Positions 250-62,100 are shown, counted from the stretch's first letter. The stretch is 64,000 bases of DNA from Candidatus Zambryskibacteria bacterium RIFCSPHIGHO2_01_FULL_46_25 (GCA_001825155.1 MHVH01000005.1:70413-134412); one strand, 5' to 3'. Numbers and translations are program-made. The notes: generated from the letters alone by a model not told the origin.

Positions 250-510
250 CTATTTTCTCTTAAGTTTATAGACCTTCATCATCTCGCCGATTGCTTTCTT
301 TCTATCCCCTTTCTTTATCTGATTCACGACACAGTGGCTGAGGTGATGTTCAAGCAGAATATCTTCCACGTTCGAAAGAGCCTGCTTCACAGCCGAAGTC
401 TGGGTGATGACATCTATGCAGTATATGTCCTTCTCGATCATCTCTCTGAGTCCCCGTACCTGACCCTCGACGATCATGAGCCGTCTTGAAAGCGTTTTTT
501 TGTTGTCCAT
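250..510 (-). CDS. csoR: CsoR/RcnR-family metal-sensing transcriptional repressor (DUF156)
   Basis: An 86 aa all-helical protein, MDNKKTLSRRLMIVEGQVRGLREMIEKDIYCIDVITQTSAVKQALSNVEDILLEHHLSHCV..., with the Cys/His pattern typical of CsoR. It lies directly upstream of an HMA-domain ATPase gene. Confidence 0.7.
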   Translation of the reverse strand: MDNKKTLSRRLMIVEGQVRGLREMIEKDIYCIDVITQTSAVKQALSNVEDILLEHHLSHCVVNQIKKGDRKKAIGEMMKVYKLKRK

Positions 511-516
511 ATTACA

Positions 517-545
517 AGTATACCCCCCTGGGGGTATATGTCAAA
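517..545 (-). promoter_or_regulatory. csoR-copA promoter with a candidate CsoR operator in the spacer
   Basis: The minus strand reads TTGACA, 16 nt, TATACT, then ~5 nt to the csoR ATG. The spacer holds a GC-tract pseudo-palindrome, ATACCCCCC-TG-GGGGGTAT, of the TA-C-tract/G-tract-TA type bound by CsoR repressors. Confidence 0.45.
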
Positions 546-2298
546 TCGACGCTCGTCGTGGAGCAGTTACTCTATCCGGCGGGATGGCGTAATAATTTAT
601 GAGAAATTTTGTCGTGTTGAAGAAGGCGTCGGTCAGCGTTTCGGACGCATACTGCACTTCTTTCGGGTAGTAAGTAAAGAGAAATATCAGAAACTTCGGC
701 TCGTACGACGGGAAGTAACCGAAGAAGGAGTGGAGGAAACGGTCTTGATAGTATCCCCCGCCAGCGGGATTCGCAATTTGCGCCGTGCCGGTCTTCGCCG
801 CGATGCTGTAATTCGGCAAACTCATTTGTCCGTAGCGTAAGCTCGTATCCACCACCTCGGTAAGCATTCTTGAGAGCTCGGCGGAAGATTCTTTGCTTAT
901 CACCCTCTCTCCTTCCTCGGCGGTTGGATAGCCAATCGATTTACTGGGCCCAAGCTTATAGCGCACTTCTCTCGCCAGATGGGGCGTGATAAGTGTGCCG
1001 CCGTTTGCGAGCGCGGAGAAGGCTCTCACGGCCGTAATGGGGGTAAGGGCAATGCCTTGGCCGAATGATGCCTGCGCGGCCTCAAGGTCTCTATGAGTCT
1101 TCAAGTTCGAGACCAGAGACTTACCTTCGTTTGGCAGGTCTATGCCTGTAACACCCTCCAGTCCGAATCGGAGCATGTAGTCTTCGAATTTTCTCGTGCC
1201 CATTCTCGAAACAGCGAAGGCGACTCCGGTATTGAGCGACTGGTTGAGCACCTCCTGCATAGAAATGTTTGTGCCGTGCGATTTGCCGTCGTAATTGCAG
1301 AAGGTCTTGGTGTTCAAGGTCATGCAACCAGGGTCATTGTATGTGGTGCGGGCGGTCACGGCGCCGGCATCGAGGGCGGATGCCATAGTCATAGCTTTCA
1401 CTATCGAACCCATCTCATAACGATCCTCGACCAATTTGTTCCTGAACACGGCGGCGTTACTCTCGTTTTGCGGGAAGTTGGGGTCGAAGGCCGGCGTAAG
1501 AGCCATGGCCCGAATCTCTCCCGTCATGGGGTCTATGACAATACCTCCGGTGAAGTCGGAAGCGTATTGATTGTTTACCTTGGCAATTTCTCCTTCAAGG
1601 AAAGCTTGGACCGAGGGCTCTATGGTCGTCGCGATATCGCCATCAAGCGAAGCTTCGTCATCAACAACCTGTTTTATATTCGAGAATATCTCCGCGAAGA
1701 AATTGATGAAGACGTCATCACCTGCCCTGCTCAAAACTTTCTCATATTGCCTCTCAAGCCCGTAGCGGCCCGAGAGTTCGGCGCCTGTCGGCGCGAAGCC
1801 TACGAGGCCGACAGCGTGAGCGGCCATCTTCTCACCCGGATAAGTACGCCATCTTTCTCTCGTTACCCCCACACCGGGGATGTTGAGAATGCGTATCCTA
1901 TCCGCATTCTCTGCCGTAAGTCGCCGGGCAAGCTCTTCGTAAGGGTCGCTCGTTTTCGCCACCTTGGCGAGATAAATTTCCTTGTCTAGGGGAATGATTG
2001 CGTTCAACTTCTCATACGTTTCCTCAATCGCGTTGTATTCGATAATAATTCCCGGATTGATATAGAGAATGAAGCCGAGCTTGACCGTGGCGGCTGGCAC
2101 CAGGGCCCCATCTTTGGTGGTAAAGAATATTGAGCCCCGGTCAAAGTAGTTTACTCCGGCGACATACTGATGCTCCGCCTTAATCTTGAAATCTTCTCCG
2201 GAAATAATTTGTACCGCGTAGAGCTTGGCAATGAGAAAAAGCGCGAATAGGAGGATTAGTAGAGAAAGCAAACGCAGCCTGTTGGGAAAAGCTTTCAT
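541..2298 (-). CDS. ftsI: Class B penicillin-binding protein (PBP2/FtsI-type transpeptidase)
   Basis: 585 aa with an N-terminal membrane anchor. SXXK (GSIVKAM), SXN (SLNTG) and KTG (KTGTA) motifs are present. It sits in the dcw-cluster position after mraZ-rsmH-ftsL. Confidence 0.8.
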   Translation of the reverse strand: MKAFPNRLRLLSLLILLFALFLIAKLYAVQIISGEDFKIKAEHQYVAGVNYFDRGSIFFTTKDGALVPAATVKLGFILYINPGIIIEYNAIEETYEKLNAIIPLDKEIYLAKVAKTSDPYEELARRLTAENADRIRILNIPGVGVTRERWRTYPGEKMAAHAVGLVGFAPTGAELSGRYGLERQYEKVLSRAGDDVFINFFAEIFSNIKQVVDDEASLDGDIATTIEPSVQAFLEGEIAKVNNQYASDFTGGIVIDPMTGEIRAMALTPAFDPNFPQNESNAAVFRNKLVEDRYEMGSIVKAMTMASALDAGAVTARTTYNDPGCMTLNTKTFCNYDGKSHGTNISMQEVLNQSLNTGVAFAVSRMGTRKFEDYMLRFGLEGVTGIDLPNEGKSLVSNLKTHRDLEAAQASFGQGIALTPITAVRAFSALANGGTLITPHLAREVRYKLGPSKSIGYPTAEEGERVISKESSAELSRMLTEVVDTSLRYGQMSLPNYSIAAKTGTAQIANPAGGGYYQDRFLHSFFGYFPSYEPKFLIFLFTYYPKEVQYASETLTDAFFNTTKFLINYYAIPPDRVTAPRRASI

Positions 2299-6207: not shown

Positions 6208-6236
6208 ATCTTAGCACAATATGAATATCTTGTCAA
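6208..6236 (-). promoter_or_regulatory. Extended -10 promoter, TTGACAAGAT-N13-TGCTAAGAT family copy 1
   Basis: On the minus strand: TTGACA, 17 bp spacer ending in TGC, then TAAGAT. 22 of 29 positions match the copies at ~18170-18198 and ~18581-18609. Confidence 0.5.
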
Positions 6237-6249
6237 TCCCTGCGGGATT

Positions 6250-6313
6250 GCTTCAGGTTCGCTCGGGCTCTGTGTAAGCAAGCTCCCACATTCCCTCGCT
6301 GCCTGAAGTCAAG
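6250..6313. repeat. 64-nt conserved intergenic element, copy A, immediately 3' of gyrB
   Basis: GCTTCAGGTTCGCTCGGGCTCTGTGTAAGCAAGCTCCCACATTCCCTCGCTGCCTGAAGTCAAG matches 29836..29899 at 61 of 64 positions. Its ends form a CTTCAGG/CCTGAAG inverted repeat. Confidence 0.6.
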
Positions 6314-6321
6314 CACAAGAA

Positions 6322-8289
6322 CTACACATCCAAAACGGCCTTCTTGGCATTTGATTGGATGAAAGATTTGCGGCTGGGCACGTCGGAGCCCATGAGGATG
6401 TCGAAGATGCGGTCCGCTTCGCGGGCGTCCTCCACCTTGACCTGCTTTAGAATCCTTTTTGCCGGGTCCATGGTCGTCTCCCAGAGTTCGTCCGAATTCA
6501 TTTCTCCCAAGCCTTTGTATCGCTGAATATCCCCTGCCTCTTCTTTCCCGACAATCTTTATTTTCTCCTCATCGGAGTAAGCGAAGTACGAATTCTTGCC
6601 CATCTTGATTTTATATAGCGGTGGCTGGGCGATGTAAACATGTCCGGCGTCAATAAGTGGACGGAAGAAGCGGTAAAGCAGGGTAAGAAGAAGGGTGCGG
6701 ATATGCGCGCCGTCAACATCGGCATCAGTGGCAATAATTATCTTGTGGTATCGGAGTTTCGAAATATCAAATGTGTCCCCTATCGCCGTGCCGAAAGCGA
6801 CGACCAGATTTTTGATTTGCTCGGAAGCGAGCATCTTGTCGAGGCGGGCGCGTTCTATATTTAAAATTTTCCCGCGCAAAGGAAGGATGGCTTGTATGCG
6901 ACGATCCCGACCCATCTTGGCCGTGCCACCGGCGGAATCTCCCTCGACAATAAATATTTCCGACTCCTCCGCCGAGCGGCTCTGGCAATCCGCAAGCTTG
7001 CCGGGGAGCGTCATGCCCTCGAGCGCGCCTTTGCGAAGCACGGAGTCCTTGGCGGCTTTGGCGGCCTTCCTCGCTTTCAAGGCTAGAACCACTTTGTTGA
7101 TGATAGATTTCGCGTCGTCCGGATTCTCCTCGAGGAACTGGCTAAAGGCTTCGCCGAAGACGGTCGTAACCATAGCCTGAGCCTCAACGGAACCAAGCTT
7201 CGCCTTGGTCTGACCTTCGAACTGGATTTCGCGCAGTTTGACCGAGAGCACGGCCGTGAGTCCTTCCAGCACGTCGTCGCCGGTGAAATTATCTTCCTTC
7301 TCGCCTACGAGATTATTCTTCCTCGCATAAGTATTAAGAGTGCGGGTAAGAGCCGTTTTGAAGCCGGTAACGTGCGTGCCACCTTCGGCGGTATAGATGT
7401 TATTGGCGAAGGGCAAGAGACGCGATGAGATATCCTCAACGTACTGCAAGGCGACCTCGACCACTTCGTAATCATTGCCGTTCGCCTTCTTTTCAACGTA
7501 GAAAATATTGCGATGCATCGGCTTCAAGTGCTCGTTCTCGAAGCGCACGAGCGAGACGAGCCCGCCCTCGAAATAGAATGAGGTTGAAGGAATGTCGAGA
7601 CCCAATTCTCTTATATAGAAAACATTTTCGTCATCCACTTTCGCTAGATTGCGGGCATCCAGCACCGAGATTCTCAAACCGCGCACGAGGTAGGCCTGCT
7701 GGCGCATGTGAGAGACAATAGTGTCGTAGTTGAAGTTGATGTCCGGGAAGATCTCTTTGTCCGGTTCGAAAGTGATGATGGTACCGGTCTTGTCCGACTT
7801 AGCAATTTTCTTCACAGCACTTTTCTTCTTGCCCTTGCTGTATTCCTGGATATATACGCCGCCATCACGATGCACAACAGCCTTGCAATAAACAGAAAGA
7901 GCGTTGACCACCGAGGCACCGACGCCGTGGAGTCCGCCGGAAATCTTGTAGCCATCGCCGCCGAATTTGCCCCCGGCGTGGAGCGTCGTCATGATAGTCT
8001 CAAGCGCGGAAACCTTCGTCTGTTTGTGAATGTCTACCGGAATGCCTCGACCGTTGTCTACCACACGAACTCTGTTGTTGGGAAGAAGAACGATTTCAAT
8101 GTCATTGGCGAAGCCGCCCATAGCCTCGTCGCGGGAGTTGTCGAAGATTTCCGTAACAAGGTGCTGGAGGCCGTCGGGACCGGTCGTGCCGATGTACATG
8201 CCGGGGCGCTTCCTGACTGGTTCCAAACCTTCTAGGACGGTAATAGATTCAGCGCTATAGCTGCTTGTTTTAGACTTCTTTTCTGCCAT
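6322..8289 (-). CDS. gyrB: DNA gyrase subunit B
   Basis: GHKL ATPase, Toprim and C-terminal domains are all recognisable (e.g. EGDSAGG, PLRGKILN). The start is trimmed to MAEKKSKTSSY...; the track ORF extends upstream to 8364 through a non-homologous leader. Confidence 0.9.
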   Translation of the reverse strand: MAEKKSKTSSYSAESITVLEGLEPVRKRPGMYIGTTGPDGLQHLVTEIFDNSRDEAMGGFANDIEIVLLPNNRVRVVDNGRGIPVDIHKQTKVSALETIMTTLHAGGKFGGDGYKISGGLHGVGASVVNALSVYCKAVVHRDGGVYIQEYSKGKKKSAVKKIAKSDKTGTIITFEPDKEIFPDINFNYDTIVSHMRQQAYLVRGLRISVLDARNLAKVDDENVFYIRELGLDIPSTSFYFEGGLVSLVRFENEHLKPMHRNIFYVEKKANGNDYEVVEVALQYVEDISSRLLPFANNIYTAEGGTHVTGFKTALTRTLNTYARKNNLVGEKEDNFTGDDVLEGLTAVLSVKLREIQFEGQTKAKLGSVEAQAMVTTVFGEAFSQFLEENPDDAKSIINKVVLALKARKAAKAAKDSVLRKGALEGMTLPGKLADCQSRSAEESEIFIVEGDSAGGTAKMGRDRRIQAILPLRGKILNIERARLDKMLASEQIKNLVVAFGTAIGDTFDISKLRYHKIIIATDADVDGAHIRTLLLTLLYRFFRPLIDAGHVYIAQPPLYKIKMGKNSYFAYSDEEKIKIVGKEEAGDIQRYKGLGEMNSDELWETTMDPAKRILKQVKVEDAREADRIFDILMGSDVPSRKSFIQSNAKKAVLDV

Positions 8290-8345
8290 AAATTTATACC
8301 CTATTTTATCATAAACGAGGCTAAAAACCAAGAGATTTGGGGATA

Positions 8346-8525
8346 TGAAAAAGCCCCGCGACAAGCAGCGAGGCCTTGTGATTTGGGGGTTGTTTCCGGA
8401 GAAGGTCCGGCCGAGTCTATGCCCTTTGTGTGGTTTGTCTTTACCGACAATCTTGTCGGCTAGTTTTCCTTGGGGGGCGGTGAGCTCAGCGTTCGTCTAA
8501 GTCCGGAAACAACCCGTTGCGGAAC
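8346..8525 (-). ncRNA. Candidate 6S-like (SsrS-like) small RNA of ~180 nt
   Basis: On the minus strand: TTGCGC, 17 bp spacer, TGC-TATTGT promoter at ~8532-8560. The 5' and 3' ends pair (GGGUUGUUUCCGGA / UCCGGAAACAACCC). There is an apical 7-bp hairpin, CCGACAA-GA-UUGUCGG, and an asymmetric internal region. An intrinsic terminator (GCCTCGC...GCGGGGC then TTTTT) sits ~60 nt before the gyrB start. Class assignment is inference. Confidence 0.3.
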
Positions 8526-12211: not shown

Positions 12212-12284
12212 GGAATACGGGAGCCGAGGACAGGATTTGAACCTGCGACCGGCCGATTACAAATCGGCTGCTCTACCAACTGAG
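12212..12284 (-). tRNA. tRNA-Thr (anticodon TGT)
   Basis: Minus-strand sequence GCCGAGGTAGCTCAGTTGGTAGAGCAGCCGATTTGTAATCGGCCGGTCGCAGGTTCAAATCCTGTCCTCGGCT. The acceptor, D, anticodon (loop TTTGTAA) and T arms all fold. CCA is not encoded. Confidence 0.8.
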
Positions 12285-12314
12285 CTACCTCGGCAATGCT
12301 AATAGTTTACCTTT

Positions 12315-20343: not shown

Positions 20344-21194
20344 AGGTTGTTGAATAGTTTGAGTCGCTCGATAACCACCTCTTTCATGCTCTTCACCGCT
20401 TCCTGCATAAATTTATATGGGGCTATCTCGCCCGATTTTATACCTTCCTCAATACCCGCTTTATAAGCTAGGCGGAGTTCTGTATTGATATGAATAATTC
20501 TAATGCCGGCCGCAATCGCTAAGCGGAAGTCTTCGTCGCTTATGCCCGAGCCGCCATGAAGGACGAGAGGTACTTCAGAAATTTGCTCAAGCTTTTTGAT
20601 TAGCTCAATGTCGAGATCTGGTTCTCCGGCTTTGACTATCCCGTGAATATTTCCCACAGAGGGAGCAAAAAGGTCAATGCCAGTTTGTTTTACGAATTCT
20701 GCCGCCTCGTCTGGATTTGTCTTCGCCACTCCTGCCGGAATTTCCTCCAGAACTTTCGATGATGTGCCAATGAAGCCAAGCTCTCCTTCGACCAAGGCCG
20801 GGCCTTGAGAATTTGTATTTAAGGCCCGGCCTTCGGCATAATCCACAACCTTTTTTGTCATGGCAACATTTTCTTCAAATGATTTTGCGGCGCCATCTAT
20901 GATGACGCTATCTACCCCCGCGTCTATGGCGGCCTTCGCCCTCTCGACGGAGTAAGTGTGGTCGGCGTTTATGAAGACGGGCAGGCCGTTGCCGCGGGCA
21001 ACTTTTACCAGAGAGACTATTTCGGCAAGGCCGATAAACTCTCTCTCCCCTTCCGATACGCCGATAATCACCGGAACTCCAAGCTCTTTCGCAGCTTCTA
21101 CCACAGCCTTGAATCCTTCGGAATCTGAAATATTGAAATGGCCTATGGCAACACCCTTCTTCTTTGCGTCGGCAATACACTCGCTTAATGTCAT
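20340..21194 (-). CDS. fba: Class II fructose-bisphosphate aldolase
   Basis: HFNISD, FINADHTYS and LVLHGGSGISDE motifs. Confidence 0.85.
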   Translation of the reverse strand: MTLSECIADAKKKGVAIGHFNISDSEGFKAVVEAAKELGVPVIIGVSEGEREFIGLAEIVSLVKVARGNGLPVFINADHTYSVERAKAAIDAGVDSVIIDGAAKSFEENVAMTKKVVDYAEGRALNTNSQGPALVEGELGFIGTSSKVLEEIPAGVAKTNPDEAAEFVKQTGIDLFAPSVGNIHGIVKAGEPDLDIELIKKLEQISEVPLVLHGGSGISDEDFRLAIAAGIRIIHINTELRLAYKAGIEEGIKSGEIAPYKFMQEAVKSMKEVVIERLKLFNNL

Positions 21195-27301: not shown

Positions 27302-27386
27302 CGGAAGCGGAGAGATTCGAACTCTCGATACCTTGCGGCATGCCACGTTTCCAACGTGGTGCACTAGACCACTATGCGACGCTTCC
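27302..27386 (-). tRNA. tRNA-Ser (anticodon GGA), long variable arm
   Basis: Minus strand GGAAGCG-TC-GCA-TAGTGGTCTAG-TGC-A-CCACG-TTGGAAA-CGTGG-CATGCCGCAAGGTAT-CGAGAGTTCGAATCTCTC-CGCTTCC-G. It has a 3-bp D stem and an extra arm typical of tRNA-Ser. Confidence 0.8.
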
Positions 27387-28781: not shown

Positions 28782-29336
28782 CTAGAAATTCACTTGAGGG
28801 GCGTTCTCGGCGCCATTGGCCGCTTCGAAGTAGGAGCGTTCGCCGAAGCCGAACAATCTGGCTAGCATATTCTTCGGAAATCTCTTGACAGTAGTGTTGT
28901 AGGCGCGAATCTCGTCATTGAAGCGAGTGCGCTCCACCGAGACACGGTTCTCGGTCCCTTCAAGCTGTGCCATCAGATCTCGGACATTGCTTGATGATTC
29001 AAGTTGAGGGTAATTCTCGACGATAACCAAGAGCCTGCCCAAAGCGCCTTCGACTTGGCTTGCGGCGGCAGCCTTCTCATCTGGAGTAGTGGCTCCGGCA
29101 TAACGAGTGCGAGCATCCGCGATATCGCCAAAAACAGTTTGCTCCTGAGTGAGAATTGCTTTTACCGAGTTGACGAGATTGGGAATCAGGTCAAATCGTC
29201 TCTGGTACTGCGTCTCCACCTTCGCCCATTGAGCGTCGGCGTTTTCGTTCAATGTAACCAAGCCGTTGTAGCCGGAGAATCCCCATATAGCTAGAATCGC
29301 CACAACCCCGATAAGCACAATAATACTTTTATTCAT
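28782..29336 (-). CDS. LemA-family protein
   Basis: An N-terminal TM and a LemA signature, RRFDLIPNLV...RVSVERTRFNDEIRAYN. Confidence 0.8.
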   Translation of the reverse strand: MNKSIIVLIGVVAILAIWGFSGYNGLVTLNENADAQWAKVETQYQRRFDLIPNLVNSVKAILTQEQTVFGDIADARTRYAGATTPDEKAAAASQVEGALGRLLVIVENYPQLESSSNVRDLMAQLEGTENRVSVERTRFNDEIRAYNTTVKRFPKNMLARLFGFGERSYFEAANGAENAPQVNF

Positions 29337-29389
29337 ATGATTTATTTAATTATTAAAATCATTTTAACACATCTAAAAAGATAGAAAAG

Positions 29390-29788
29390 AAAAAGGGTGG
29401 AGGCTTCAATTGCTAGCCTCCACCCTTACGAACACGGGCTCTGCGTACCCTTTGTCGGGGAATCTCTAGCGGAGCAGTTGCCACGGGCCTTGCTTAGGCG
29501 TTCGGATGCCATGCCTCGCGCTCAAGGCGGGAGGTGCTTACTGGAACATCACTGTTGCCAATCGGCGCTGGGCTGGCCGGTCTACACCGGCCTTTTTCAA
29601 ACACCTCGATTTTGGTCGCGGCGGCGCATCACGAGGATGCGTCGCAGCCACCACCGCTCGAGGTCAGCGGTTTAACGAACGACGAGCACGGAACGTCTCG
29701 GAATCTTCTTTGCTGGGTTCTCGAAAGGAACCCCGCTTAGGTAAATCCCGATGAGAACGACCTCAATCCGGACCCCCTTTCTTTAGCC
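29390..29788 (-). ncRNA. GC-rich structured non-coding RNA (~400 nt) of unknown class
   Basis: On the minus strand: TTGACA, 17 bp spacer, TATGAT promoter at ~29796-29824. An intrinsic terminator, GGGTGGAGGC-N9-GCCTCCACCC then TTTTT, sits at ~29395-29426. There is no ORF of 60 aa or more on the transcribed strand, and no GC3 bias. Several internal hairpins are visible. Confidence 0.35.
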
Positions 29789-29835
29789 TGTATTTATCAT
29801 ACACCCAAACCTGTTTTTTGTCAATGCTTCGCATC

Positions 29836-29899
29836 GCTTCAGGTTCGTTCGGGTTCTGTGTGAGCAAGCTCCCACATTCCCTCGCTGCCTGAAGTCAAG
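29836..29899. repeat. 64-nt conserved intergenic element, copy B, immediately 3' of groEL
   Basis: 61 of 64 positions match copy A at 6250..6313. As with copy A, a short palindrome and then a -35 TTGACA follow it. Confidence 0.6.
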
Positions 29900-29904
29900 T
29901 TCTA

Positions 29905-31572
29905 TTAATAATCCATTCCCCCGTGGGAGTGCGGTAAATCTGGAAAAGGCTTCGCCTTTTCTGGCTCATCCGCTATGGCGACCTCTGTAGTGAGAAGGAT
30001 GGCGACGGCTGAGGCGGCATTCTCAAGCGCCACTCTCGCGACTTTTACCGGGTCGATAATCCCCTCTTCGAACATGTCGGTTACAAACATATCCGTAAGC
30101 GCGTTGTAGCCGGAGTTGGCTTGTCCCTTCATCACTTCATTCAAAACTACTCCATCTTCCTTGCCGGCATTCCTCGCGATTTGGCGCAGAGGTTCCTTGA
30201 GCGCCTCCACCACGGCCATGTAGCCCGCGGCAAACTCTGCCGCCTCCGCGTTCTCGGGAGCGAGTTTGGATTCCTTGGACTCCTTATACTTCGCCTCAAT
30301 TTTCTTTGAAACTTTGGCATAAGCACTGCCGCCACCAGCGACAACTCCCTCGGCAATGGCGGCCTTGGTGGCATTGACGGCATCCTCAATCTTCAATTTC
30401 AAATACTTCATCTCCGTTTCTGTCGCGGCGCCGACCTTGATGACAGCCACACCGCCGGTGAGCTTGCCAATGCGCTCCTTAAGTTTCTCAATATCGAACT
30501 TGGAAACTGAGTTTCCAAGTTGGGCGCGGAGGCTCTCGACTCTCGCAACAATCTCGGCCTTCTTGCCTTTGCCACCTACTATAATCGTAGAGTCCTTCGT
30601 GGAAACCACTCTCGACGCGCGACCGAGCATATTGAATTCCGCCTTTTCGAAAGTGAGACCGACATCTTCCGAAACAACTTTGGCACCAACGGTAGCCGCA
30701 ATGTCCGCCAGCAATTCCTTCTTCTTGTCGCCGTAGCCGGGAGCCTTAATCGCAAGCACATTGAAAGAGCCTCGCAACTTGTTTAAAACAAATGTGGTCA
30801 ACGCTTCCCCATCAACATCTTCGGCGATTATTACAAGGTCTTTCTTATCGCTCGCGGCAAGCTTCTCGAGCAAGGGTAAAATATCCTTGATGACCGAAAT
30901 TTTCCTGTCAGTAATAAGAATGGCCGGGTCCCGATACTCGGCTTCCATCCTCTCGGCATTGGTAATCATATAAGCTGAGATATAGCCCTTGTCGAACTCG
31001 AGCCCTTCGACAATTTCCGAATCAATGCCCATAGACTGGGACTCCTCGACCGTAACCACGCCGTCCTTGCCAATCTTCTTTATGGTATTAGCGATGATTG
31101 TGCCTATCTCTTCCGACTCGGCGGAGATTGTCGCCACTTGCCTCACTTCCGCATCGGCTTTGATGGGCTTCGCCATCTTCTTCAAAGCGTCTATGGCATC
31201 GGCAGCCGCGGCCTCGATACCTCTCCTTATGCCCATGGAATTTGTCCCCGAGGAAGACTTCTTGAATCCCGCTTCGACGAGCGCCTGGGTCAATACAACC
31301 GATGTGGTCGTACCGTCACCGGCGGCGTCATTGGTCTTCGTCGCCACCTCCTTCACAATCTCGGCGCCCATGTTCTCGAACTTGTCGGCAAGCGTTATTT
31401 CCTTGGCAATGGTTACACCATCATTGGTAATAGTCGGCGCGCCATAGCCCTTGTCGAGAACGACGTTTCTGCCTCTCGGACCAATGGTAATCCTCACCGC
31501 GTCAGCAACCGCATCCACTCCGCGCTTAAGCGCCTCCCTGGCATCCTGATTAAAAAGTATTTTCTTTGCCAT
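29905..31572 (-). CDS. groL: Chaperonin GroEL (divergent C-terminus)
   Basis: 555 aa with AAGDGTTT and other GroEL blocks. Confidence 0.9.
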   Translation of the reverse strand: MAKKILFNQDAREALKRGVDAVADAVRITIGPRGRNVVLDKGYGAPTITNDGVTIAKEITLADKFENMGAEIVKEVATKTNDAAGDGTTTSVVLTQALVEAGFKKSSSGTNSMGIRRGIEAAAADAIDALKKMAKPIKADAEVRQVATISAESEEIGTIIANTIKKIGKDGVVTVEESQSMGIDSEIVEGLEFDKGYISAYMITNAERMEAEYRDPAILITDRKISVIKDILPLLEKLAASDKKDLVIIAEDVDGEALTTFVLNKLRGSFNVLAIKAPGYGDKKKELLADIAATVGAKVVSEDVGLTFEKAEFNMLGRASRVVSTKDSTIIVGGKGKKAEIVARVESLRAQLGNSVSKFDIEKLKERIGKLTGGVAVIKVGAATETEMKYLKLKIEDAVNATKAAIAEGVVAGGGSAYAKVSKKIEAKYKESKESKLAPENAEAAEFAAGYMAVVEALKEPLRQIARNAGKEDGVVLNEVMKGQANSGYNALTDMFVTDMFEEGIIDPVKVARVALENAASAVAILLTTEVAIADEPEKAKPFPDLPHSHGGMDY

Positions 31573-31590
31573 ACTATTTACTATCTACTG

Positions 31591-31887
31591 TTACTTAATA
31601 ACTGCCAATACATTCTCTTCTTTAATAAGATAGAATTCCTCGCCATCCAGCTCAATCTCGTCGTAAGAATATTTGGAGAAAAAGACGACATCGCCCGCCT
31701 TCACCTTCTTGCCCTCGCCCACGGCAACCACTTTTCCATGGGCGGATTTCTCATTGACGACAGCGTCGGGGAGAATAATTCCGTAGGAAGGCTTCTTACC
31801 CTTGAGCTCCTCGGCGGTAAACGGCTTGACCAACACCCTGTCTCCTATAGGAATAATTTTGCCTTTTTTTACTGGTTTTTTCTGCAT
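31591..31887 (-). CDS. groS: Co-chaperonin GroES
   Basis: 98 aa including PIGDRVLVK and a mobile loop. Confidence 0.9.
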   Translation of the reverse strand: MQKKPVKKGKIIPIGDRVLVKPFTAEELKGKKPSYGIILPDAVVNEKSAHGKVVAVGEGKKVKAGDVVFFSKYSYDEIELDGEEFYLIKEENVLAVIK

Positions 31888-50611: not shown

Positions 50612-50682
50612 GCTGCCGGACTTGGACTCGAACCAAGATACTCGCCTCCAGAGGGCGATGTCCTACCATTAGACGATCCGGC
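50612..50682 (-). tRNA. tRNA-Gln (anticodon CTG)
   Basis: Minus strand TGCCGGA-TC-GTCT-AATGGTA-GGAC-A-TCGCC-CTCTGGA-GGCGA-GTAT-CTTGG-TTCGAGT-CCAAG-TCCGGCA-G, with a U1-A72 pair as in bacterial tRNA-Gln. Confidence 0.8.
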
Positions 50683-50777
50683 AATACGGGCTCAGATTAC
50701 ATTAAAAATCGGTTGTTTTCAATACATAGATTAAGAAAAGGGCCGTCGCTACGGCCCCTTTCGGGAATTCTTTTGAT

Positions 50778-60882: not shown

Positions 60883-62100
<1,218 letters not shown>

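Follow-up and report, generated by a model that had tools for sequence, protein, structure and literature searches.

The RNA component of ribonuclease P (RNase P) belongs to the small group of ribozymes that are universal, and CR-I to CR-V, its conserved regions, are considered invariant. In bacteria of the Candidate Phyla Radiation (CPR), a survey found the RNase P RNA of 10 out of 35 complete genomes to be missed at default Rfam thresholds; the diverged RNAs lose helices P12, P13, P14, P15 or P18, and two-thirds are devoid of the CCA-binding motif (Lui et al. 2021, PMC8172020). The present analysis concerns an RNA gene of ~400 nt in Candidatus Zambryskibacteria bacterium RIFCSPHIGHO2_01_FULL_46_25, which is located between groEL and lemA on the minus strand (29385..29791) of a stretch of 64,000 nucleotides (GCA_001825155.1, MHVH01000005.1:70413-134412; hereafter the window, to which coordinates refer unless another locus is named). 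This groEL-lemA RNA is a non-coding transcription unit; its helices and junctions resemble those of RNase P RNA and follow one another in the right order, to a degree beyond chance. It is probably the RNase P RNA gene (rnpB), in a class-A form that has diverged beyond the reach of the corresponding Rfam model, RF00010.

The sequence loci gathered for comparison, including groEL/lemA loci of relatives, are designated by L-numbers. In two of them, RNase P RNAs occur in the same groEL neighbourhood: one, which has a promoter and a terminator of its own, directly follows groEL (L073:3284-3682, plus strand; 74.5 bits with RF00010), and the other was found at L017:8137-8499 (minus strand; 85.8 bits). 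Both stay below the gathering score of 100 bits and are therefore invisible to default Rfam annotation. In addition, a minimal RNase P RNA is present in L145 (~468-760, minus strand; IMG/VR contig 3300034378_000133, filed as viral), in which P11 and J11/12 lead directly to GUGAAACGGCUAAAUCC with no P12-P14, and the P15-P18 region is very short.

The assignment of the groEL-lemA RNA is carried by its arrangement of helices and junctions. A local alignment to the E. coli M1 RNA is colinear over ~200 nt (RNA positions 161-357 versus E. coli 146-356; RNA position = 29796 - window coordinate). Relative to E. coli, P10, P13 and P14 are changed on both strands while pairing is kept, including compensatory changes in P10 (GA/UC to GU/AC) and P13 (GGUGCG/CGCACC to GGCCGG/CCGGCC). 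After this alignment had suggested a threading, structural descriptors were built from E. coli and Rfam consensus class-A features, and for the specificity domain also from L162. The specificity-domain descriptor has as its base a 2-bp P10, 3 nt, and GUGC ... G[CU]AA[AG]C followed by the P10 3′ strand. Its extra features are ACCGC (the start of P12) 8-22 nt after GUGC, UGAAA(R)GG with a hairpin (P13) directly after it, and a GNRA-capped hairpin (P14) no more than 45 nt from the P11 3′ strand. When both strands of 4.56 Mb of real sequence (all gathered loci) were scanned, the base pattern occurred 435 times, and 4/4 extra features were present only in E. coli rnpB, the L162 RNase P RNA, and the groEL-lemA RNA with its identical copies; the remaining base matches had none (400), one (27) or two (1) of them. 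Among 150,000 dinucleotide-preserving shuffles of the groEL-lemA RNA, the best reached 2/4 extra features.

A second descriptor covers the catalytic domain and requires a P7 helix abutting the P10 3′ strand and GCAAG after P7; a P4 of 6 bp plus a bulged U, with its 3′ strand right after CAGA[AG] and its 5′ strand 35-70 nt before P10; and [CU][AU]AGA, with a P2 3′ strand no more than 7 nt further on whose pairing partner is upstream of P4. All four features are present in E. coli and in the groEL-lemA RNA, but in only 1 of 20,000 shuffles (0.005%). The shuffle pass rates were 0.8% for P4 alone, 0.05% for P4 with P2, and 68% for P7, which is not discriminating. This test uses segments outside the specificity domain and is thus independent of the first one. 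Without anchoring, the catalytic-core descriptor is unspecific (240 matches in the 4.56 Mb), so that only the anchored version counts. Even after a hundred-fold correction, the p-values of the descriptors stay small.

The proposed class-A structure, all on the minus strand, begins with the pairing of the two ends of the RNA. P1 joins AAAGAAA (29778..29784) to UUUCUUU (29386-29392; RNA 12-18/404-410), and P2 joins GGGGG (29773..29777) to UCCCC (29457-29461; RNA 19-23/335-339). Both are also helices of the minimum free energy (MFE) fold (P1, p 0.88; P2, as 19-25/332-338, p 0.75). P3 is a short hairpin (29753..29772, within RNA 24-43) and the sole part that varies between strains. The 5′ strand of P4, CA-U-CGGG (29747..29753), would form six Watson-Crick pairs with CCCGUG (29433-29438), namely C43 A44 (U45) C46 G47 G48 G49 with C358 C359 C360 G361 U362 G363, with U45 bulged and the 3′ strand standing right after CAGAG. 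By manual threading, P5 and P7 appear fused (AAGCGGGG at 29731..29738 with UCCCGC(C)UU at 29524-29532; RNA 58-65/264-272), P8 is vestigial (RNA 66-78), and P9 is not convincing. Two other threadings were rejected: AAGCGGG as the P4 5′ strand clashes with P7 and with the spacing, and CAACAGUGA as CR-II belongs to the P14 hairpin.

According to the descriptor and the M1 RNA alignment, the specificity domain extends over 29534..29694. It comprises P10 (G102 U103 with A261 C262, GU/AC) and P11, in which GUGCU (G107-U111) faces A254 G255 U256, an AA bulge (A257 A258; 29538-29539), and G259 C260. Within the domain, these are followed by P12 (29653-29671, RNA 125-143), which starts with ACCGCU, an extra hairpin after P12 (29614-29652, RNA 144-182), J12/13 (UUUGAAAAAGG, 29591-29601), P13 (29575-29592, RNA 204-221), and P14 (29543-29560, RNA 236-253), whose GUGA loop is the same as in L162. 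Further downstream, a J5/15-like GCAAGG (29488..29493, RNA 303-308) is part of a 9-mer, AGCAAGGCC, that is identical to E. coli. The P15-P18 segment is reduced to only ~16 nt between GCAAGGCC and CUAGA, and a J18/2-like CUAGAGAUU (29461..29469, RNA 327-335) runs into the P2 3′ strand. The equivalent of CR-V is a J2/4-like GCAGAG (RNA 352-357), which together with the P4 3′ strand CCCGUG occupies 29433..29444. An internal 15-nt repeat, UAMGCARRGCCCGUG, was also observed (29433-29447 and 29482-29496; RNA 350-364 and 301-315; 80% identical, 49 nt apart), and it spans both the J5/15-like and the J2/4-P4-like segments.

P15-P17 and the L15 GGU, which pairs with the 3′-CCA of tRNA, are absent from the groEL-lemA RNA. 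None of the tRNA genes of the window (12222-12294, 27302-27386 and 50613-50683; minus strand) encodes a 3′-CCA, the nucleotides that follow them being CCC, CAA and CCC, which fits the loss of L15 GGU.

With regard to transcription, the original prediction, which was made from the sequence alone, had placed a GC-rich RNA of ~400 nt between groEL and lemA, starting from a near-consensus minus-strand promoter and ending at an intrinsic terminator with a 10-bp stem. The RNA (58% GC, compared with 48% for the window; ~29385-29791) and the promoter were both recovered as described. The latter is of the sigma-70 type (29824..29796; TTGACA, 17-nt spacer, TATGAT) and matches the consensus at 11 of 12 positions, and transcription probably starts near 29789-29791. 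A homologous promoter is present downstream of groEL in the relative L086 (CTTGACA..TTTGGGTGTATGATATAAACAG), together with a homologous transcript start (CTTGACA..TTTGGGTGTATGATATAAACAGTAGGC). There it drives protein genes. The promoter is therefore old and real, while the content that it drives varies by species. The terminator (29385..29427) is likewise present, but its stem is longer than had been proposed: a hairpin at 29393-29427 (RNA 369-403) of 13 bp with 100% complementarity (AAGGGUGGAGGCU / AGCCUCCACCCUU) and a 9-nt loop is followed by UUUUUCUUUU (pair probability 0.97). Owing to the size of the loop, it escaped a simple terminator scan. The U tract serves at the same time as the 3′ strand of P1.

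The RNA folds with an MFE of -168.4 kcal/mol (z = -4.17 versus shuffles). The reverse strand is equally stable (z = -4.40), so the assignment of the strand is based on the promoter and the terminator. On the plus strand, a terminator-like site is scored at 29575-29597, where TTTTT comes after the complement of the P13 hairpin, and weak promoter-like sites are located at 29297-29359; an antisense transcript of ~230 nt may cross the gene.

A further question is whether the region could be a protein-coding gene or a frameshifted pseudogene; a frameshift-corrected gene was one of the outcomes that the original prediction had named as its refutation. Three overlapping plus-strand open reading frames (ORFs) of 68-92 aa lie opposite the RNA. 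They have no Pfam match, and a search of 1.84 billion representative proteins gave no homolog of the longest (92 aa) either. On the transcribed strand, the longest ORF is 38 aa. Scored with the genome's own codon usage, all six frames are negative (-0.33 to -0.53 bits/codon), in contrast to real genes (+0.26 +/- 0.14), there is no GC3 bias in the region, and tblastx and tblastn show no relation to the genes and small ORFs that fill the slot in relatives. The predicted lack of coding capacity thus held, and a coding origin has a negligible probability.

It is also conceivable, though very improbable, that the RNA is a long 5′ leader or attenuator that uses the terminator to control a lemA-TPM-GGDEF operon. 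From the end of the terminator to lemA there are 50 nt, alternative pairings are available (CGUUCG with UGAGCG or CGAACG), several GGAGG/CCUCC segments occur, and there is a 9-codon ORF with a Shine-Dalgarno-like run at the 5′ end. However, relatives have no leader, their lemA beginning 37-56 nt after groEL, and in the window the terminator and lemA are separated by a further promoter-like site. In addition, 400 nt is far above known leader lengths, and no riboswitch family is matched. The 9-codon frame itself (UUG AGG UCG UUC UCA UCG GGA UUU ACC UAA; 29737-29766 minus, RNA 30-59) is preceded 6 nt upstream by the purine run AAAGGGGG and is intact in the L083 variant; it is probably a chance occurrence.

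Family searches gave no assignment. The Infernal/Rfam check proposed in the original prediction was run and returned no family match. In the window, Rfam 15 identified only three tRNAs, and no other RNase P, tmRNA (transfer-messenger RNA) or SRP (signal recognition particle) RNA candidate was found at E<=0.1. On stretches of 701 nt and 371 nt, no family matched the RNA body on the transcribed strand at E<=10, the only match on that strand being a 13-bit chance match to a trypanosome snoRNA. In these Rfam searches, no match was obtained with the covariance models for SRP RNA, 6S RNA, OLE, ROOL, GOLLD, raiA, HEARO and riboswitches. ARAGORN found no tmRNA in the window. The exclusion of tmRNA and SRP RNA in the original prediction is therefore borne out, and the hairpins that it quoted are present at RNA 155-171 and 204-221. 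It was also right that the RNase P motif strings are absent, but the probable RNase P identity was missed, since GGAAAGUCCGG and ACAGARCCCGGCUUA, on which its search relied, are not conserved in this RNA, whereas the helix and junction descriptors fit class A. Between its two suggestions, the descriptor tests favour a divergent housekeeping RNA beyond chance, and a novel structured RNA becomes the minority reading.

Several other candidates were discarded. The covariance model R2, a weak model of the specificity domain, was degenerate (only 7 pairs kept), and its top match, 18.8 bits at 61602-61695 (plus strand), is a false positive inside a 405-aa helicase-like ORF (60883-62100). A candidate CR-I/CR-V pair at 20483-20747 falls within a 284-aa ORF.

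Outside its own species, the RNA has no homolog among 90 related loci. An nhmmer search with the RNA in 80 groEL loci of relatives gave no match, and the RNA is absent even from relatives whose LemA is 81-86% identical (L084-L091). Similarly, blastn against phage and plasmid collections gave no match, pattern scans of IMG/VR returned only noise, and a metagenome pattern scan (CTAGA-N(12-40)-GCAGAGCCCGTGTT) gave 15 chance matches in a collection apparently without the source species. The 16-mer AAGCAAGGCCCGTGGC has at least 80 matches to viral contigs (L185, L189 and ~50 other IMG/VR loci) because in a phage RecT-like gene that is conserved it encodes GKQGPW. Within the species, the same RNA sequence recurs in independent JGI (L081), NCBI (L082, GCA_001824055.1) and ENA (L083 and L093) assemblies and is thus no artefact of assembly. 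Copies from other samples differ in P3 alone, by six substitutions in the 5′ hairpin of one contig (L083; within 29754-29791), and the hairpin is retained.

GroEL and LemA assign the window to the Parcubacteria/Paceibacteria, near Zambryskibacteria. The gene order SBP5 / groES-groEL-lemA-TPM is widely conserved in relatives, while the content of the groEL-lemA interval varies. In the window, groES (31591-31887), groEL (29905-31572) and lemA (28782-29336) are all on the minus strand, and lemA is followed by a TPM-domain gene, a GGDEF gene and tRNA-Ser. The groEL-lemA gap of 568 bp (29337-29904) is non-coding and contains a repeat element of 85 nt, the promoter and the RNA gene. In L001 (5657-5693) and L089 (3945-4000), the spacing is only 37-56 nt. 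Elsewhere, the slot holds unannotated small ORFs, i.e., ORFs of 184 aa and 95 aa in L086 (2986-4000), 92 aa in L090 (3560-4000) and 101 aa in L084 (3493-4000), or a 637-aa gene on the opposite strand in L088 (1924-4000).

Such a slot might carry an unrelated, lineage-specific structured RNA as its cargo, in which case the likeness to RNase P RNA would be a coincidence of GC-rich hairpins. The lack of any Rfam, nhmmer or significant pairwise match and of homologs in the related loci, the phage and plasmid collections, and the IMG/VR and metagenome pattern scans is in line with this idea, as are the other cargo (or none) at this position in close relatives, a further structured RNA downstream of groEL in L060, and the internal 15-nt repeat, which covers two of the RNase P-like motifs. 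On the other hand, tests on independent parts of the molecule were passed by 0 of 150,000 and 1 of 20,000 shuffles, the specificity descriptor had zero false positives in 4.56 Mb, every bacterium needs RNase P, and size, layout and genomic position are as expected for its RNA. A coincidence of this kind is therefore held to be improbable.

The L060 RNA belongs to a different Patescibacterium. It is a GC-rich, strongly structured RNA of ~310 nt (L060:1672-1985, plus strand; z = -6.9) that directly follows groEL and has a promoter and a terminator of its own. At E<=10 it matches no Rfam family, none of the loci contains a relative, and the RNase P descriptors do not fit it. A relationship to the groEL-lemA RNA was not convincing; the two share a 12-mer, ACCGCUGACCUC, but its structural surroundings differ.

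Between the groEL stop codon and the promoter, and outside the RNA, there is a TTGAC-flanked repeat element of ~85 nt (29818..29899, minus strand). A second copy (6230-6313, minus strand) is 88% identical, and no further copies were found in the window or in the gathered loci. Each copy starts right after a stop codon (that of groEL and that of a 680-aa ORF at 6322-8364, respectively) and ends in the -35 box of a promoter. In the element, which is bounded by TTGAC direct repeats, an outer stem of 7 bp (CUUCAGG/CCUGAAG) is accompanied by a second hairpin with compensatory differences between the copies (GAUGC-GAA-GCAUU versus AAUCCC-GCA-GGGAUU). L086 has the same promoter uninterrupted and without the element, which thus looks like a small insertion into the -35 box.

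Returning to the identification as rnpB, a considerable number of observations weigh against it. RF00010 gave no match at its gathering score, at E<=0.1 in the whole window, or at E<=10 on the 701-nt and 371-nt stretches. The score of the groEL-lemA RNA is estimated to lie below ~6 bits, compared with 318.6 for E. coli, 85.8 for L017 and 74.5 for L073. Scores of 75-86 bits are reached by the diverged CPR RNAs, whose alignments with one another have z values of up to 28, whereas the groEL-lemA RNA scores nothing. Profiles built from RNase P RNAs did not match it with nhmmer, and its pairwise alignments to nine RNase P RNAs had z values of -1.3 to 2.4, an unrelated control RNA doing no worse (genuine RNase P RNA pairs, 2-28). 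The specificity-domain covariance model R1 gave 7.3 bits (E 0.09) in an alignment unlike the manual threading. The same model gave 7.5 and 5.4 bits with the genuine L073 and L017 domains; as it performs equally poorly on genuine Parcubacterial domains, it cannot discriminate. Covariation supports none of the helices, since the homolog searches gave no diverged sequence. The MFE fold favours local helices (45-53/90-98 and 105-120/272-287) with high pair probability, which are incompatible with P4 and with P10/P11. The form of P4 is non-canonical, with 6 bp and with C-G/A-U instead of the universal A-U/G-C as the pairs that flank the bulge. The universal J3/4 GAGGAAAG and the CR-I-defining string GAGGAAAGUCC are absent. 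A search for CR-I as GAGGAAAGUCCGG (J3/4 plus the P4 5′ strand) with at most 2 mismatches matches E. coli, L017 and L073 but not the groEL-lemA RNA, in which only GAGG ... AUCGGG remains. ACAGARA (CR-II, J11/12) is absent after P11, where GUGCU is followed by CGUCGUUCGUUAA; an ACAGUGA at RNA 241-247 is part of the P14 hairpin. Finally, the descriptors were written after the alignment had been seen, so that their p-values are optimistic.

These deviations are relevant to another explanation, according to which the RNA is a paralog or relic derived from RNase P RNA, decaying or repurposed, while the true enzyme (a canonical RNA or the protein-only HARP) is encoded elsewhere. The least conserved nucleotides are those key to catalysis and T-loop recognition (J3/4, the pairs flanking the P4 bulge, and J11/12). 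Strain-level variation is confined to the P3/J3/4 region, the content of the groEL-lemA slot differs in every close relative, and near-canonical cores are kept in L017 and L073. However, the helices are maintained by compensatory changes relative to E. coli, the strong promoter and terminator, the GC enrichment and the folding z argue against decay, and no second RNase P RNA is present in the 64-kb window. RNase P RNA paralogs are not known in bacteria. This explanation is regarded as unlikely, and an rnpB gene remains the preferred identification.

If so, the product would be a strongly diverged Parcubacterial form of the class-A (ancestral bacterial type) ribozyme. Its transcription would start at a promoter of its own and stop at the intrinsic terminator, and its ends would be paired by P1/P2. 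Its specificity domain (P10-P14) would bind the T-arm side of the tRNA precursor, and the catalytic core around the P4 pseudoknot would remove the 5′ leader together with the small RnpA protein. The RNase P fold, the processing and the catalytic activity are predictions. The replacement of universal core nucleotides (J3/4 GAGGAAAG, the P4 bulge-flanking pairs and J11/12 ACAGARA) might, tentatively, indicate either a rewired active enzyme with a different substrate recognition, or the first bacterial paralog, co-opted while a second enzyme (RNA or HARP) processes the tRNAs.

An active enzyme would extend the sequence space known for the catalytic core and for T-loop recognition, whereas an inactive RNA would be the first retained RNase P-derived RNA in a bacterium. 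Calls of a missing RNase P RNA in CPR genomes, as used in completeness checks, can be false negatives even where Infernal is run with very low thresholds. In addition, the groEL-lemA RNA provides the seed sequence, and its proposed fold the structure hypothesis, from which an RNase P model specific to the CPR could be built.

Among known systems, tmRNA (ssrA) resembles the groEL-lemA RNA in its similar length and paired ends; the 5′ GGGGG of the latter can form a helix with ..GCCUCCACC close to its 3′ end, in which the third pair is a G-U. The groEL-lemA RNA differs from tmRNA in that it lacks both a T arm and a tag reading frame with a hydrophobic tail at its end. The candidate was rejected on these grounds and because CCUCCACC is the 3′ arm of the terminator hairpin and ARAGORN and Rfam were negative.

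With class A (RF00010, E. coli M1 RNA), the groEL-lemA RNA shares the order P1, P2, P3, P4 (5′), P7, P10-P14, P11/P10/P7 (3′), J5/15 GCAAGG, J18/2 CUAGA, P2 (3′), J2/4 CAGAG, P4 (3′) and P1 (3′). Also in common are the AA bulge of P11 in the same geometry (E. coli, GUGCA / GGU-AA-AC), the P12 start ACCGC, the J12/13 UGAAA-GG, the GNRA loop of P14, the bulged U of P4, and a length of ~400 nt with its own promoter and terminator. It differs in the fused P5/P7, the reduced, vestigial P8/P9, the lack of P15-P17, the extra hairpin after P12, a 12-nt J13/14, and a terminator hairpin that stands between the 3′ strands of P4 and P1.

A further comparison is with the diverged CPR RNase P RNAs. They belong to the same bacterial radiation, escape the default cut-off, and have lost P15 and the UGG motif, as has the groEL-lemA RNA. 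The position downstream of groEL is shared with the L073 RNA, and a similarly short segment from J5/15 to J18/2 is shared with the L145 RNA. These RNAs keep GAGGAAAGUCCGAAC, ACAGAGA and ACAGAAUUCGGCUUA, none of which is kept in the groEL-lemA RNA; the latter in turn retains P13 and P14 in an E. coli-like form, both of which are lacking in L145. Its kind of divergence is already anticipated by the CPR RNase P RNAs; the degree goes further, as the conserved core strings are gone.

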